From a virus, in IMG/VR virus record IMGVR_UViG_3300017739_000004, positions 38,949 through 102,948 of that record: a stretch of 64,000 bases of DNA; one strand, 5' to 3'. The position numbers and the translations under genes are program-made. This document shows positions 3,421 to 14,153 of this stretch, in pieces (the stretch's first letter is position 1; the number at the start of each line of letters is the position of its first letter). The notes under the pieces are model-generated. The model did not search any database and was not told where the DNA came from. It was given only the letters and a program-made list of their open reading frames with translations.

Positions 3421-4150
3421 ACTTTTAAGTATAGCATTGCTATTGTCGACTACTTTTGTTTTCGCACAAGCCACTGATGATAACGAAATTAAGATCACAC
3501 AATCTGGTGATACCTTAAAATTATATGTAGACCAAATCGGTTTTGGAAACAAAATCGGCGGTGATGACGCTTCAGGCGGTTCACTATCTGCTATGACTAT
3601 TACAGGTAGTTCACTAGAGTTTGATTTAGATTTTACTGGTAATCAAAACGTTTTATTTGGACCAGTCGAAGCTGATAGTTCTTACTATAAGCTCGATTTT
3701 ACTGGTGATTCAAACAAAATAGATTGGAATATTGGTTATATCGGAAGTGCTGATGATTCAAACATTAACTTTGATGTGACAGGTGATTCTAACGAATTTG
3801 ACCTAGATCAAGGTTATGTTGCTAGTGCAGAAAGATTAGATGCTGATTTAATTTTAATTGGTAGTTCAAATATATTTGACATAGACTGGGAAAGTGATGA
3901 TAACGTTTGGGACTTTGATATTACAGGAGATTCAAACAATATTAACACATTACAAAATGACGGCGAACACAATCTTGAGTTCACTTTAGTAGGTGATTCA
4001 GCTGACGTCGACATTAATCAAATATCTGGTACATGTGCAAGTGGAGCAGGAACAAGTTGTGTTTCACCAAATGCAAATATTGTATTAGATGTGACTTCAG
4101 ACAATGCAATCATTCAACTTAATCAACAAGATTCGTCTAACGATTCTTAA
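3413..4150 (+). CDS. Secreted curlin-like beta-repeat protein
   Basis: GAGGAG SD; signal peptide; repeated xTGDSNx / QxG units; acidic; next to csgG. Confidence 0.7.
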   Translation: MNKLLSIALLLSTTFVFAQATDDNEIKITQSGDTLKLYVDQIGFGNKIGGDDASGGSLSAMTITGSSLEFDLDFTGNQNVLFGPVEADSSYYKLDFTGDSNKIDWNIGYIGSADDSNINFDVTGDSNEFDLDQGYVASAERLDADLILIGSSNIFDIDWESDDNVWDFDITGDSNNINTLQNDGEHNLEFTLVGDSADVDINQISGTCASGAGTSCVSPNANIVLDVTSDNAIIQLNQQDSSNDS

Positions 4151-8080: not shown

Positions 8081-8124
8081 TGTGTGACAGTTGTGTGACA
8101 ACTGTGTAACAATTGTGTGAATTC
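8081..8124 (-). repeat. Four 11-bp-period direct repeats, Pho-box/OmpR-family-operator-like
   Basis: tgtgtgacagt tgtgtgacaac tgtgtaacaat tgtgtgaattc. Confidence 0.8.
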
Positions 8125-8136
8125 TTTAAAAAACCG

Positions 8137-8165
8137 TTTACAAACCTATCAAACTATAGTATAAT
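8137..8165 (+). promoter_or_regulatory. Sigma70-type early promoter
   Basis: TTTACA-N17-TATAAT. Confidence 0.8.
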
Positions 8166-8193
8166 GGTACTATAATTTAGATAAGGAGAAAAA

Positions 8194-8490
8194 ATGAGTT
8201 ATAACATAATATTAAAATCCGTCGACGGATTTCAAAGCGTAGATAAAGAAGCAGTAGTTGCTTTTGTAAAAGATAAATTAAGCTATAGTGTAGACCCAGT
8301 AGCTAGATCAGAAAACAAGTTCTGGTTAAATGGAAAATGGGAAGGCGGTAAATTTTACGCATTCCTAGAAGGTCAAAGATACTATCAGTTAGTTATCAAT
8401 AGATTTGATTTTGGAATCAAAGCTGGTGGAGATTTTAATTCTTGGAATGTAGCAGGCATTCTTAGAGAAGAAATTAAGGAGGCGTTATAA
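8194..8490 (+). CDS. Early hypothetical protein
   Basis: TAAGGAG SD; first gene after the promoter. Confidence 0.8.
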   Translation: MSYNIILKSVDGFQSVDKEAVVAFVKDKLSYSVDPVARSENKFWLNGKWEGGKFYAFLEGQRYYQLVINRFDFGIKAGGDFNSWNVAGILREEIKEAL

Positions 8491-9030: not shown

Positions 9031-9071
9031 TGTGACCAGCCAGTCACAAATTGTCACACAATTGTCACACA
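9031..9071 (+). repeat. GTCACA repeats at 10-11 bp spacing, inverted relative to the 8081 array
   Basis: tgtgac..ca gtcacaaatt gtcacacaatt gtcacaca. Confidence 0.8.
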
Positions 9072-9077
9072 AAACAG

Positions 9078-9106
9078 TTGACATTTACAGAAAAGCGTGA
9101 TACTAT
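9078..9106 (+). promoter_or_regulatory. Sigma70-type early promoter
   Basis: TTGACA-N17-TACTAT. Confidence 0.8.
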
Positions 9107-9139
9107 AGACATATAAATTAATAATGATAAGGAGTAAAT

Positions 9140-9286
9140 ATGAGTGATTATTATAATAACGACGATATTGTTAGCAGCGTCGATCAATCAAAAGCTGACA
9201 TCATAAGTAGACTAGACGAAATTGAATCAAGAATTGAAAAGATTTTTGAAATCGTTGAAAATATGGAGGCTAATTTAAATGGATAG
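9140..9286 (+). CDS. 48-aa coiled-coil early protein (absent from ORF track)
   Basis: TAAGGAG SD; MSDYYNNDDIVSSVDQSKADIISRLDEIESRIEKIFEIVENMEANLNG. Confidence 0.75.
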   Translation: MSDYYNNDDIVSSVDQSKADIISRLDEIESRIEKIFEIVENMEANLNG

Positions 9287-10019: not shown

Positions 10020-10193
10020 ATGGTAATGAACTTTGAACACATTGCAACTCGAATACCTTTAAATGTAAGAGTTGACATGATAAGCTTTATATGTTATAAT
10101 ATAGGTTTAAAAAACAAAGCAATTAATAGAGTAATGAAATTTTATGATATTGATGAAAATGAATATTTTTACGAAGGAGTGATTTATGGGTAA
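10020..10193 (+). CDS. 57-aa hypothetical protein (absent from ORF track)
   Basis: AGGAG SD; MVMNFEHIATRIPLNVRVDM...YEGVIYG fills the gap. Confidence 0.55.
   Translation: MVMNFEHIATRIPLNVRVDMISFICYNIGLKNKAINRVMKFYDIDENEYFYEGVIYG
10072..10100 (+). promoter_or_regulatory. Sigma70-type promoter
   Basis: Consensus TTGACA-N17-TATAAT. Confidence 0.85.
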
Positions 10194-10907: not shown

Positions 10908-11187
10908 AGACGCTGTAATAAAACAAGCTAAACTATTATTAGCTGAACAATGGGCAAATGGAATTACGAATGTCCATGTGTTTGATACTACTAAAGTTCA
11001 GATGTGGTACGAGAATATTAATACAGAAAAAGACGGTCGTGTCACAGATATAACTTACAACGATGGACGTATTGAAAGATCACAAAATGGAAAAGTGATT
11101 AGAACTTTTGGTGAGAAACAATTATGTGGCAATGACTTAATTAATCAATGGGAGAGATTTGGACCAACAGTTGACATCTCAATTTAA
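10894..11187 (+). CDS. Hypothetical protein
   Basis: GAGGA SD; 97 aa. Confidence 0.75.
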   Translation: MSEHKDAVIKQAKLLLAEQWANGITNVHVFDTTKVQMWYENINTEKDGRVTDITYNDGRIERSQNGKVIRTFGEKQLCGNDLINQWERFGPTVDISI

Positions 11188-11199
11188 CTGTGTTATAAT
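11171..11199 (+). promoter_or_regulatory. Sigma70-type promoter
   Basis: Consensus TTGACA-N17-TATAAT. Confidence 0.85.
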
Positions 11200-11207
11200 A
11201 TAATATT

Positions 11208-11564
11208 ATGGGAATGACTAATTTTTATCAAGGTTCACTGAGGTATTCACCTTGTGGCCGAAAAAGAAAAAATCACATGGCTAATCCAGTCAAGAAAAAA
11301 CCAATTCATTTTAAAAAGATGAAAGTTGAAAAGTCAACATTAGATATAATGCGTAAAGAACAAGCAAAGCAATATAAATCATTAATGGAAGAAGCTATCA
11401 AAGATGGTACATGGTTAGATCAGGCAGGTAATACAGCTAAAAAAGAGAATCCAGTTTATACTGGCACATTAGTAAAAGGTATTGCCACAATGCATAAATC
11501 AAATGCTGTTCCAGTTATTAATCAGCAAGAAGCAGAAGATATTGCTAAAATGAGGAGAGGTTAA
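11208..11564 (+). CDS. Basic hypothetical protein of a T4-like phage family
   Basis: C-terminal YTG..VKGIATMHKSNAVPV..EAEDIAKMRR. Confidence 0.8.
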   Translation: MGMTNFYQGSLRYSPCGRKRKNHMANPVKKKPIHFKKMKVEKSTLDIMRKEQAKQYKSLMEEAIKDGTWLDQAGNTAKKENPVYTGTLVKGIATMHKSNAVPVINQQEAEDIAKMRRG

Positions 11565-11689
11565 TGAAAGAGTTTTGGAAACAGTTTTTTGGTTTTTGGA
11601 ACAATATTTTCAATTGGTCGTTTAGAGTTTTAATATTATTAATTATTTGTTATTTTATATTACATTTAATTAATGGTGGTAATATATGA
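11564..11689 (+). CDS. 41-aa membrane peptide (absent from ORF track)
   Basis: GAGGAG SD; MKEFWKQFFGFWNNIFNWSFRVLILLIICYFILHLINGGNI. Confidence 0.6.
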   Translation: MKEFWKQFFGFWNNIFNWSFRVLILLIICYFILHLINGGNI

Positions 11690-11733
11690 AAGAGTATCGT
11701 CGTGACGACGGTTAAATATCAAATAGGAGTATT

Positions 11734-11940
11734 ATGATAACAGAACAAGGAAGTAAAAAAGAAATCTCTACGTTTATGAGAGGACCATTGAAGTCAGATT
11801 TATTTGAATCAAATGGAGTTTATGGATGTGATTATTACCGAGACGGAGTTTTGGTTTTAACAGAAATGTATGAAGGTAAAAGCAGACACTATGCACAAGC
11901 AGCTGCAGAGAATTACGTAGATGGAATTAAACAAGTTTAG
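11734..11940 (+). CDS. Hypothetical protein
   Basis: AGGAG SD; C-terminal SRHYAQAAAENYVDGI. Confidence 0.8.
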   Translation: MITEQGSKKEISTFMRGPLKSDLFESNGVYGCDYYRDGVLVLTEMYEGKSRHYAQAAAENYVDGIKQV

Positions 11941-11942
11941 AA

Positions 11943-11994
11943 GGTTGACCGGAGTTTCCAACTCCTTATCATTAGCTTCGGTTAACCAATTTTT
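11943..11994 (+). ncRNA. Hairpin with an anti-Shine-Dalgarno loop (candidate antisense regulator or terminator)
   Basis: 12-bp stem 11943-11954/11976-11987; loop contains ACTCCTTATCATTA; short T-run follows. Confidence 0.55.
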
Positions 11995-12000
11995 ATATAT

Positions 12001-13143
12001 ATGAGTATGGCAAGAAAAAAGAAAAGAGGACCAACCTTAGAAGATAAGTATTTAGGACCAGAACCTAATTATGGACCACACAATAACGTTGGTGAAGGCG
12101 AAGAAAGACTTAAAGAATATCACAGAGGTGCATCTTGGTTTTATTATTACGAGAATAGAAAGAAAGCACACAATGCAATATTACACTATGCAAAGCACGA
12201 TTTAAAATTAACGAATAAAGAACTAGTTAATTTAAATAAAAATCCTGTATGGAAAATTAATCAAAAAAATTATAAACCAATTGCAATGTATCAAGCAGGC
12301 TGGGTTGGAGCTCCTTTAGATTTAGAAGCAGTTAATCAAAGATTACGTGATCTAGTGAAAAAAGGTGAGAAGATCAAACTACAAAAATTAAAAGAGAGTC
12401 CACCAAAGCCTGTCATTACACCACAAGAAAGAACAAGAAAAAAAGTTATAGAAACAATTTATATGGACTGGGACTCTACAATAGTAGAAGGTTGGTTTGA
12501 TGAAGATTATACACAAAAGTTTTCTGCCTATAATAGATTTAGAGGTTATGGATTAAAAAGTAATTCAATTAATATATTTAAAGCTTTATTAGAACAAGAG
12601 TATAATAATATACAAGAGGCTTATAATAGAACTTGCGAGCAATGTGTAGAAGCCTATTCACATATTACAAAAGGTAATAAAAGAAAAATATTAAAACAAT
12701 TTGAAGATGTATTTGCTGATTTAGAAAAATTAAGAACATCATTTAAATCAGCTCGTAAACCAAGAGCACATAAACCAAAAACATCAGACAAACAAGTTGA
12801 AAGATTACAATACATGGAAGAAAGTATTGATGATAAACTTGTTTCAATTAATCCTGTACTCATACCAAGAAGTCATAAGCTTTTTGTTTATAATACAAAA
12901 CAAAGAAGATTATTTGAATACAAGACTGAATCAGCTCATGGATTTGAAGTGAGTGGTACAACAATTAAAAATTTTGATGACGAAAGTAGAGTTGCACTTT
13001 TACGCAAACCAGAAGAGATATTACCACAAATTTTAAATAAAACAGAAAAACAAATTGAAAAGGTTTGGAGTAATATCACAACAAAAATAAATAAACCTAC
13101 AGGCAGAATCAACTCAGACTGTATTTTATTAAGGGTAATATGA
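12001..13143 (+). CDS. Hypothetical protein upstream of gp33
   Basis: 380 aa; C-terminal LFVYNTKQR..GTTIKNFD..LRKPEE..TGRIN. Confidence 0.85.
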   Translation: MSMARKKKRGPTLEDKYLGPEPNYGPHNNVGEGEERLKEYHRGASWFYYYENRKKAHNAILHYAKHDLKLTNKELVNLNKNPVWKINQKNYKPIAMYQAGWVGAPLDLEAVNQRLRDLVKKGEKIKLQKLKESPPKPVITPQERTRKKVIETIYMDWDSTIVEGWFDEDYTQKFSAYNRFRGYGLKSNSINIFKALLEQEYNNIQEAYNRTCEQCVEAYSHITKGNKRKILKQFEDVFADLEKLRTSFKSARKPRAHKPKTSDKQVERLQYMEESIDDKLVSINPVLIPRSHKLFVYNTKQRRLFEYKTESAHGFEVSGTTIKNFDDESRVALLRKPEEILPQILNKTEKQIEKVWSNITTKINKPTGRINSDCILLRVI

Positions 13144-13382
13144 CAGAAATAATTGAAGAAAAAATAATGACTAAAAAAAGATTTTCACTTGCAGTTGAGA
13201 GTTTAGTATCTAGTCATAAAATGAATTATATAGATGCAGCTGCGCATGTAGTTCAAGAAAGAGGATTAGATTACAGGTCTATGAAAAGACTTATGACAGA
13301 TTCTCTAAAAGCAAAAATAGAAGCAGAAGCTAAAAGCTTAAATTTATTAAGAGTAAAAAAAACTAATAAATTACCAGTATGA
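13140..13382 (+). CDS. 33: Late transcription coactivator gp33
   Basis: F..AVE...MNYIDA...LKAKIEAEA..LNLL; 33-59-32 synteny. Confidence 0.85.
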   Translation: MTEIIEEKIMTKKRFSLAVESLVSSHKMNYIDAAAHVVQERGLDYRSMKRLMTDSLKAKIEAEAKSLNLLRVKKTNKLPV

Positions 13383-13552
13383 CAATCTGGAACAATACTA
13401 AAGATTGGGAAAAGACTTCCAATGAATGGGTTGCAACCATGCACAAATCAAGACTTAAAAAAGAAAAAAAAGCTATGTGTAATCACGATGATTTTGGCTG
13501 GTGTGAGAATTGTTTAACAACTGAAGATGGTGAGAAATTAGAACCAGTATGA
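13379..13552 (+). CDS. 57-aa protein with a C-x-H-x5-C-x2-C motif (absent from ORF track)
   Basis: ATGA overlaps at both ends; MTIWNNTKDWEK...CNHDDFGWCENC...EPV. Confidence 0.65.
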   Translation: MTIWNNTKDWEKTSNEWVATMHKSRLKKEKKAMCNHDDFGWCENCLTTEDGEKLEPV

Positions 13553-14142
13553 AAGACCCTTTTGATTCTTACAAATTATATAATTCGTTAAAATTACATT
13601 TTGAAACTGATAATTATGATGCGATTAAATATAATTTTAAAACTTCAGTTAAACCTACTTCTTTCTTTAAAAGAAAAGATAAATATTTTTTTGCAAAGTT
13701 AGCAAATACATACGATGATCTCTTAGATTTCTATGTTGCTAATTTCAAAAATGATGTTAAGTATGTCGGTGATATGCTTAACGAACATGGCGAACGATAT
13801 TATCGTGAGCATAAAAAGGTATGTGAAAGTTTAACATATACTTTTGAAAATGATATAAATAAATTATACGAAAGTAATTCTGATTTTAATGCTTTATTAG
13901 AAGCAAAAGATAATGAACATCCTTTCGTAATAACTTATTGGCTTCAAGATGAAATACACTTAGAAACTGTAGTAATCTTGGATGCAATAACCGGGTTTAT
14001 AAATCGTGAGAATAAAAAGATTTCTGAAACAATTATTTGGCCAGATATCTTTAGAAAGATTACGAAATATAAACCTTTCGTAAAGTTCGATAAAACTAAA
14101 TGTGTAAATATTTTGAAAAAGACCTTTACAAAGACACAGTAA
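13549..14142 (+). CDS. 59: Helicase loader gp59
   Basis: YKLYNSLKLHF..YDAIKY..F.KRKDKYFFAKLA; I.LET.VILD; synteny. Confidence 0.88.
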   Translation: MKDPFDSYKLYNSLKLHFETDNYDAIKYNFKTSVKPTSFFKRKDKYFFAKLANTYDDLLDFYVANFKNDVKYVGDMLNEHGERYYREHKKVCESLTYTFENDINKLYESNSDFNALLEAKDNEHPFVITYWLQDEIHLETVVILDAITGFINRENKKISETIIWPDIFRKITKYKPFVKFDKTKCVNILKKTFTKTQ

Positions 14143-14153
14143 TGTGTTATAAT
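14125..14153 (+). promoter_or_regulatory. Sigma70-type promoter for gene 32
   Basis: TTTACA-N17-TATAAT. Confidence 0.75.

Follow-up and report, generated by a model that had tools for sequence, protein, structure and literature searches.

The boundary between the early genes and the core genes of an uncultured, marine, T4-like phage raises the question of what an RNA hairpin might do there if its loop is complementary to ribosome-binding sites at the beginning of the same early block. The hairpin lies in a 64,000-nt stretch of DNA, hereafter the window, which corresponds to positions 38949-102948 of a 102,948-bp IMG/VR virus record (completeness estimate 61%; G+C content 33%). An earlier note, prepared from the sequence of the window, had read the hairpin as an anti-Shine-Dalgarno (anti-SD) RNA that shuts off translation of the earliest genes.

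A single hairpin at the end of the early gene block

The hairpin is contained in the 60-nt spacer between the stop codon of a 68-aa ORF and the ATG of a 380-aa ORF (Table 1), and closes a block of small early genes of roughly 2.7 kb. Its position is syntenically fixed: it is found at the 3' end of this block of small ORFans, ahead of the core genes encoding gp33 and gp59, and in all clades it starts 2-6 nt past the stop codon of the same small gene, the product of which ends in AENYVDGIK or a close variant of this sequence.

Table 1. Coordinates of the hairpin, its neighbouring genes and the matched early leaders in the window
Feature	Position	Strand	Remarks
Promoter of the second target, sigma70-type early	8137-8165	+	consensus scan
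Second target, GATAAGGAG, in the leader of gene 8194-8490	8180-8188	+	9-nt match
Promoter of the best target, sigma70-type early, TTGACA-17-TACTAT, TG-extended	9078-9106	+	consensus scan
Best target, leader and Shine-Dalgarno region of the first gene (ATG 9140)	9122-9135	+	exact 14-nt complement of the loop
68-aa gene, conserved, C-terminus ...AENYVDGIK..	11734-11940	+	stop 2 nt before the hairpin
Hairpin 5' arm, 14 nt	11943-11956	+	minimum free energy fold; stem co-varies in relatives
Hairpin loop, 17 nt	11957-11973	+	core CAACUCCUUAUCA at 11959-11971; antisense stretch 11961-11974
Hairpin 3' arm	11974-11987	+	minimum free energy fold; stem co-varies in relatives
U-rich tail AAUUUUUAUAUAU	11988-11999	+	renders the hairpin terminator-like in the window clade
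380-aa gene, conserved, phrog_11903	12001-13143	+	downstream of the hairpin; anchor for finding relatives
gp33-type late-transcription coactivator	13140-13382		downstream of the hairpin
gp59 helicase loader	13549-14142		downstream of the hairpin

Relatives of the locus were collected via the 380-aa protein, which yielded 47 IMG/VR loci and 80 metagenome loci, all of them marine, with protein identities to the window of 48-90% and a mean column identity across the clade of 71%. A megablast search against phage records returned no close cultured relatives; by tblastn, homologues of the 380-aa protein in cultured T4-like phages are distant only (27-36% identity), and no such hairpin is present upstream of the homologue in Caulobacter phage Cr30 or Synechococcus phage BUCT-ZZ01. 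The protein matches no Pfam family and is distantly related to hypothetical proteins of the T4-like and jumbo phages Cr30, phiM12, DLP6 and PA5oct. In the window clade, its gene is not preceded by a Shine-Dalgarno (SD) sequence (11988-12009, TATATATATGAGTATG), which reads TAAGGAG in all other clades; TATATATA, located just upstream of the gene, could be a late-type -10 element giving rise to a leaderless start.

For the plus strand of the window, RNAfold predicts a 14-bp stem and a 17-nt loop with a free energy of -19.9 kcal/mol (z = -3.8 versus shuffles); the minus strand folds poorly (-12.3 kcal/mol). The hairpin and its coordinates are thus as first described, except that the stem had been drawn with 12 bp and the loop with 21 nt; the three G-U pairs assigned to that stem are indeed three in all, two of them in the 12-bp part and the third in the 2-bp extension. 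A suggested alternative fold, in which 11951-11956 would pair with 11960-11965 and mask part of the antisense stretch, did not hold up: it scores -6.4 kcal/mol versus -18.4 kcal/mol for the main hairpin, a deficit of about 12 kcal/mol, and is not conserved in other clades. Switching between the two folds was accordingly rejected, the loop core being predicted as single-stranded with a mean unpaired probability of 0.99 across 58 sequence contexts.

Because MAFFT alone misaligned the stems, a covariance model was built from 22 distinct hairpins. The model finds exactly one sense-strand match in the window and in each of the 40 viral loci with upstream DNA, and matches 64 of the 80 metagenome loci; among the remaining 16, 15 hold a more divergent form of the hairpin and one comes without upstream DNA. 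Altogether, wherever upstream DNA is available, each of the related marine T4-like contigs (about 120) has the hairpin once, on the sense strand, and no second copy occurs in records of 103, 98 and 49 kb. Each distinct sequence folds by itself into an 11-14 bp stem with a 17-29 nt loop. In the model-fitted alignments, 10 of 11 stem pairs have changed on both sides, and the covariation score amounts to 0.545 for 23 sequences and 0.575 for 44 sequences, compared with 0.273 for shuffled ones (reached in 0/500 shuffles); the signal collapses when the partners are slid by 1-3 columns. Across the approximately 120 relatives, the loop core CAACUCCUUAUCA shows little or no change, in contrast to the freely diverged flanking spacers. 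Of 49 distinct sequences, 34 form the more stable fold on the plus strand, and G-U pairs account for 12% of all pairs, which points to a sense RNA. The hairpin is a conserved, sense-strand structured element and not a local accident.

Several other readings of the same letters were considered and rejected. A sigma70 promoter, TTGACC-16-TATCAT, at 11945-11972 matches at 10/12 positions in the window only, and nothing resembling a -35 hexamer is found in the 5' arm of the other clades. A minus-strand gene using the inverted motif as its SD sequence finds no start codon at a workable distance in the window, and the corresponding frames in other clades are tiny or non-conserved. Finally, inverted repeats of an invertible 2.7-kb segment are not in keeping with the same orientation of the segment in all relatives, and no invertase was seen.

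The location of the hairpin, where the early ORFans give way to gp33 and gp59, would also suit a simple attenuator or terminator, or an mRNA-stabilizing 3' hairpin which closes the block in the manner of the promoter-early stem-loops (PeSL) of T4-type phages and in which the anti-SD-like sequence of the loop plays no part in pairing. In the window, L010, L024 and L041 clades, the stem runs into a U-tract, and the strong promoter located directly after the hairpin in the L024 clade reproduces the PeSL arrangement (PMC4122927, PMC2839356); in the window, a weak promoter-like match overlaps the hairpin itself. Compared with Rho-independent terminators, in which a GC-rich stem with a small loop runs directly into a U-tract, the window has the stem and the U-tract, but the loops measure 17-29 nt as opposed to 3-8 nt and the full hairpin is not called by the consensus scan. 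Terminators do not need a 13-nt invariant core within such a loop, about half of the clades have a weak U-tract or none, and in the L010 clade the next gene is too close for a new promoter to fit in between, so that termination there cannot be complete. Given that this explanation also fails to account for the co-variation between the loop and the leaders described below, we consider it unlikely.

An invariant loop on a variable stem is, on the other hand, the classic form of a protein-binding hairpin, and the loop might be an operator for an RNA-binding protein, for example, a translational repressor like T4 RegA, gp32 or gp43, with its complementarity to the leaders being secondary. A near-invariant C two bases 5' of ACUCC, left unexplained by pairing in most clades, is consistent with this possibility. 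However, no RNA-binding domain was found among the proteins neighbouring the hairpin. The 380-aa protein was rejected as a candidate RNA binder: a hint of L7Ae similarity in its sequence is weak (E = 0.04) and unsupported by a fold search, in which the AlphaFold model (pLDDT 73), whose N-terminal part is helical and whose small C-terminal part is rich in beta structure, retrieved nothing from the PDB at E <= 0.001 using Foldseek. Moreover, a protein that binds a single strand would not explain a conserved and co-varying complement at the leaders, which makes this alternative quite unlikely.

Rfam 15 contains no family that matches the hairpin, in line with the earlier note, which did not recognize it as a described element: there is no gathering-score match in the 64-kb window and nothing relevant at E <= 10 in the region 11000-13000. 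A full-text literature search for the loop and leader strings returned unrelated primers only, and no paper in the literature searched describes the element.

Complementarity and co-variation between the loop and early leaders

The antisense stretch of the loop is the exact reverse complement of the best target, as originally claimed, and both the sequence and the coordinates were verified. The target falls between the promoter and the ATG of the first gene, and the duplex with the loop has a predicted energy of -19.9 kcal/mol. The two shorter matches that had been listed are present as well, one of 9 nt between the promoter and the ATG of the second target (Table 1) and one of 7 nt at 10174-10180, before gene 10186. 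The objection that matches of 14 nt might be common in composition-matched shuffles can be set aside: the exact 14-mer occurs in 0/100 dinucleotide shuffles, and when 300 copies of the 103-kb genome were simulated with a second-order Markov model, two contained a loop complement of at least 14 nt, the longest complement typically reaching 10 nt; a match so rare is unlikely to be due to chance. The energy of the duplex is not unique within the genome, two gapped duplexes in coding sequence scoring equally well.

The suggested search of the whole genome for further leaders located the full AAGGAG at only 8 genes in 103 kb. Three of these genes are promoter-proximal, and only these three have the AU/GAU extension that lengthens the pairing with the loop. 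Five of the eight occurrences cluster in the early block, at 8.1-10.5 kb of the window (8183, 8476, 9129, 10174 and 10450).

The relatives contain a promoter-leader cassette homologous to that of the window, with the plus strand reading (T/G/A)GATAAGGAG(T/A) at 12-18 nt past a TG-extended -10 element and 4-8 nt before the first ATG. For each of the 44 distinct loci whose upstream DNA spans at least 2.7 kb, the longest stretch exactly complementary to the loop was determined; in 39 loci it measures 8-14 nt and lies in a promoter-proximal leader just before the ATG, and in the other five it is located outside any leader. These leader complements lie 2.5-3.9 kb upstream of the hairpin, mostly 2.5-3.0 kb, whereas shuffled loops find a complement of at least 9 nt in a leader in 30 of 880 trials. 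The first genes behind the leaders belong to at least four unrelated families of small proteins which swap between clades, and hence the motif travels with the promoter cassette rather than with a particular gene. Such swapped first ORFs are seen in the window at 8194-8490 and 9140-9286, and also in L008, L010, L024, L029 and L090.

At least 14 further early promoters of the genome come without a hairpin. A second class of early promoters has the form TGTTATAAT, with an ATG 6-14 nt later and no SD sequence; it is represented in the window at 10072-10100, 11171-11199 and 14125-14153, and outside the window at genome positions 1062, 3210, 25146, 30176, 32012 and 34012. Judging from their sequence, these promoters would give leaderless or near-leaderless early mRNAs, unlike the class with a leader and a strong SD sequence that is matched by the hairpin. 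Directly upstream of the -35 boxes of leader-type promoters, the repeats ACAATTGTGT / TGTCACACAATTGTCACAC are found (8100-8125, 9040-9072 and L010:1233-1270), which could be an UP-like element or a regulator site of the cassette.

Co-variation of the loop with its targets in related phages, which had been named as a check on the antisense reading, is observed: clades with altered loops show matching alterations in their leaders. The loop of the window clade, ...AUCAUUA, faces the leader UAAUGAU... (complement of 14 nt), and in L010/L011 the loop ...AUCAUCA faces UGAUGAU... (14-15 nt); in L019/L020, TTTT replaces TTAT in the loop and AAAAA replaces ATAA in the leader, and in L135/L138 an A-to-G change in the loop turns the pair with a leader U into a G-U pair. 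The clearest case is provided by the L131-L134/L137, L132 and L105/L108 clades, in which the loop is without the 3' TCA, has gained AUUUAC and reads ...CATTTACTCCTTATAT or ...TATAG; TGA has likewise gone from the promoter-proximal leaders, which read ATAAGGAGTAAAT, TATAAGGAGTAAAT or AAGGAGTAAAT (as RNA, the variant leaders of the L131-137, L132 and L105 clades are AUAAGGAGUAAAU), such that 11-14 nt of complementarity is kept and has moved to the other side of the SD sequence. In L133, this natural variant pair consists of a loop at L133:4120-4187 and leaders at L133:1639 and 2214. Predicted energies separate into blocks, at -16 to -23 kcal/mol for own-type duplexes, -10 to -15 kcal/mol for canonical loops on leaders of the variant clades and -12.5 to -16.4 kcal/mol for variant loops on canonical leaders.

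The paired register differs between clades, and the leaders tolerate insertions or deletions of 1 nt within the motif (L015, L107 and L119); in these three and in L130, only 9 nt of complementarity is kept or a 1-nt bulge is required. The shifting register, the leader indels and the matched changes favour an RNA duplex over a protein site of fixed extent. Since the loop core never varies, the co-variation comes from the flanks and from a few clades, and since the leader cassettes recombine in a PeSL-like manner, the uniformity of the leaders may partly reflect homogenization and not selection for pairing.

In L024, at 3930-3975, and at the homologous places of L027, L033 and L035, a strong promoter follows the hairpin, and its spacer includes TGATAAGGAA, which repeats the leader motif over 9 nt in the sense orientation at a distance of only about 35 nt from the loop. 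This copy could serve either for local pairing on read-through RNA or as a DNA operator.

Each of these two options has a general form. The first is that the loop acts in cis, by forming a pseudoknot with the SD sequence of the 380-aa gene 10-40 nt downstream, which would be masked on early read-through transcripts, much as in T4 genes e, soc, 49 and I-TevI. In most clades this gene is preceded by UAAGGAG(U/A), and the L024 promoter, placed between the hairpin and the gene and carrying the 9-nt copy in its spacer, would yield hairpin-free, translatable transcripts. Nevertheless, the loop is intact in the window clade, which has no SD sequence before 12001, another ORF intervenes between the hairpin and the 380-aa gene in several clades, and the co-varying complementarity to the distant leaders extends over 12-15 nt versus 7-8 nt with the nearby SD sequence, all of which renders local masking very unlikely. 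The second is that the motif is a double-stranded DNA site for a phage or host protein and is functional in both orientations, as an operator at the early promoters and once, inverted, between inverted repeats. The location of the motif at +6 to +25 of early promoters would be compatible with this idea, the spacer of the L024 promoter is a typical operator position, and the sites of one protein would also change together. A DNA site has no need, however, of a co-varying flanking stem that tolerates G-U pairs and is fixed to one strand; the leaders accommodate 1-nt indels inside the motif, and the complementary register reaches into different flanks depending on the clade, which suits a duplex and not a fixed protein footprint. 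We regard a DNA site as highly improbable.

Proposed action of the hairpin

The concerted changes in loop and leader make control of early protein synthesis the most likely role of the hairpin. Building on the structure, conservation, complementarity and co-variation documented above, we propose that the anti-SD hairpin at the 3' end base-pairs with early-cassette leaders at the 5' end, thereby restricting how much the first cistrons are translated, a reading which we favour on balance. The hairpin would be a sense-strand RNA element transcribed last on the early block, with the 11-14 bp stem holding the 17-29 nt loop open and thereby presenting the anti-SD sequence. The loop would then pair with the first 10-25 nt of the mRNAs issued from one class of early sigma70 cassettes. 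Because the hairpin is made last on the transcripts that bear the leaders, its action might be intramolecular, with the pairing taking place between the 5' and 3' parts of the same long transcript, or in trans, following accumulation or processing. Translation of the immediate-early first cistrons would be held back or brought to a timed end, perhaps accompanied by cleavage of the duplex, and the outcome would be a delayed negative feedback on the immediate-early proteins. From the sequences of the loop and leaders, we infer that the RNA is made and stable, that it pairs in the cell and that the pairing, in cis or in trans, is repressive.

The 3' end of E. coli 16S rRNA reads CACCUCCUUA. The loop resembles this tail at 9 of 10 positions, and by virtue of this resemblance it would compete with the ribosome for the SD sequence. 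Topology puts strain on a full 14-bp duplex formed within a closed loop of 17 nt, and hence perhaps only about one turn of it forms. The direction of the effect could also be the opposite, namely, stabilization of the 5' end instead of repression.

More tentatively, the hairpin might be a class-wide timer: a single mimic of the 16S anti-SD tail, made last, that would capture the private, exceptionally strong ribosome-binding leaders of all immediate-early cassettes and switch their first cistrons off, with the loop and the leaders evolving as a matched pair. Such a timer would be an RNA counterpart of T4 RegA and RegB and the first regulatory RNA of the T4 family; we see this broader scheme as possible rather than probable.

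Absent from the RNA catalogue, the hairpin family occurs in every sampled member of an abundant clade of marine T4-like phages and has a clear class of predicted targets. In practical terms, the match between loop and leader flags immediate-early promoter cassettes in the genomes of uncultured phages. The pair is also potentially a compact, orthogonal device for translation control, considering that loop variants with matching leaders exist in nature.

Relation to known regulatory systems

The closest parallel in terms of mode of action is found in Staphylococcus aureus, where an anti-SD motif in the 3'-UTR of the icaR mRNA pairs with the SD sequence in the 5'-UTR of the same mRNA (PMC3868564); the interaction between the 5'- and 3'-UTRs of Bacillus subtilis hbs is a related case (PMC5737220). 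In interactions of the icaR type, the two sites share a transcript, pairing reduces translation and RNase III cuts the duplex. As in icaR, the two ends of one transcription unit are complementary, with a C/U-rich anti-SD sequence at the 3' end and a ribosome-binding site at the 5' end, and the expected outcome would be a block of initiation. The defining arrangement, a 3' anti-SD complement of the unit's own leader, is found here with 8-14 nt in 39 of 44 loci and co-varies, which is a likeness of working and not homology. Unlike in icaR, the phage unit is a polycistronic early block of 2.5-3.9 kb, the motif resides in a dedicated large hairpin loop, and the target is present on several promoter cassettes; there is no sequence relation.

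Among phage RNAs, the c4 antisense repressor RNA of P1 and P7, Rfam family RF01695 (listed in PMC2864571), is comparable in that it is located in the operon of its own target and pairs through an exposed loop with the ribosome-binding region of a gene upstream or downstream, a pairing that is predicted in the case of the hairpin. Membership in the c4 family was rejected, because the hairpin has no match to RF01695 or to any other Rfam family and consists of a single hairpin with one loop, as opposed to the two c4 loops for two target boxes. Furthermore, the context is that of a lytic T4-like phage and not of temperate immunity, and the target would be a class of early leaders.

C-rich anti-SD loops are carried by the S. 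aureus RNAs RNAIII and RsaE. RNAs of the cuckoo family comprise 2-4 adjacent hairpins with the loop motif CCUCCUCCC in each (PMC4615179). The phage hairpin shares with these bacterial small RNAs a variable, co-varying stem topped by an invariant, anti-SD-like loop that is thought to occlude ribosome-binding sites. The differences are that it is phage-encoded and located at the 3' flank of a gene, with no promoter of its own seen. It is not a member of the cuckoo family either, being one hairpin and not an array of 2-4 modules, with CAACUCCUUAUCA and not CCUCCUCCC as its loop core.

The T4-type phages themselves offer two points of comparison. The PeSL are recombining cassettes of a sigma70 promoter and an SD sequence (PMC2839356, PMC4122927). 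The promoter-leader cassettes shared by the phages studied here resemble them, inasmuch as repeated sigma70 promoter and SD cassettes precede unrelated small ORFs in a T4-like genome. The PeSL stem-loops, however, are attenuators between early units, repeated with each cassette, many times over in hyperplastic regions, and described with neither a conserved loop nor complementarity to leaders, whereas the phage hairpin is single-copy and its loop core invariant; its presence once per record and the 14 or more early promoters without it led us to reject its assignment to the PeSL stem-loops.

The second point of comparison is post-transcriptional control in T4. Hairpins on early read-through transcripts mask the ribosome-binding sites of T4 genes e, soc, 49 and I-TevI, and RegB targets the GGAG of early SD sequences (PMC3014915); the shut-off of early genes known in the T4 family works via proteins, RegA and RegB, and a T4 review of 2010 stated that no trans-acting regulatory RNA was known in T4. 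The Pfam profiles of RegA and RegB have no match in the 61%-complete genome, in a search in which the controls gave no match either. The hairpin proposed here would likewise be a post-transcriptional limit on translation initiation, unlike the masking hairpins, which act locally on the adjacent gene, and unlike RegA and RegB, which are proteins. Collectively, these comparisons lead us to class the element provisionally as anti-SD antisense regulation in a new form, in which a 3'-end hairpin would be matched to a class of phage early leaders. If this is true, phages too time their early programme by the anti-SD loop principle used by bacterial small RNAs and icaR.
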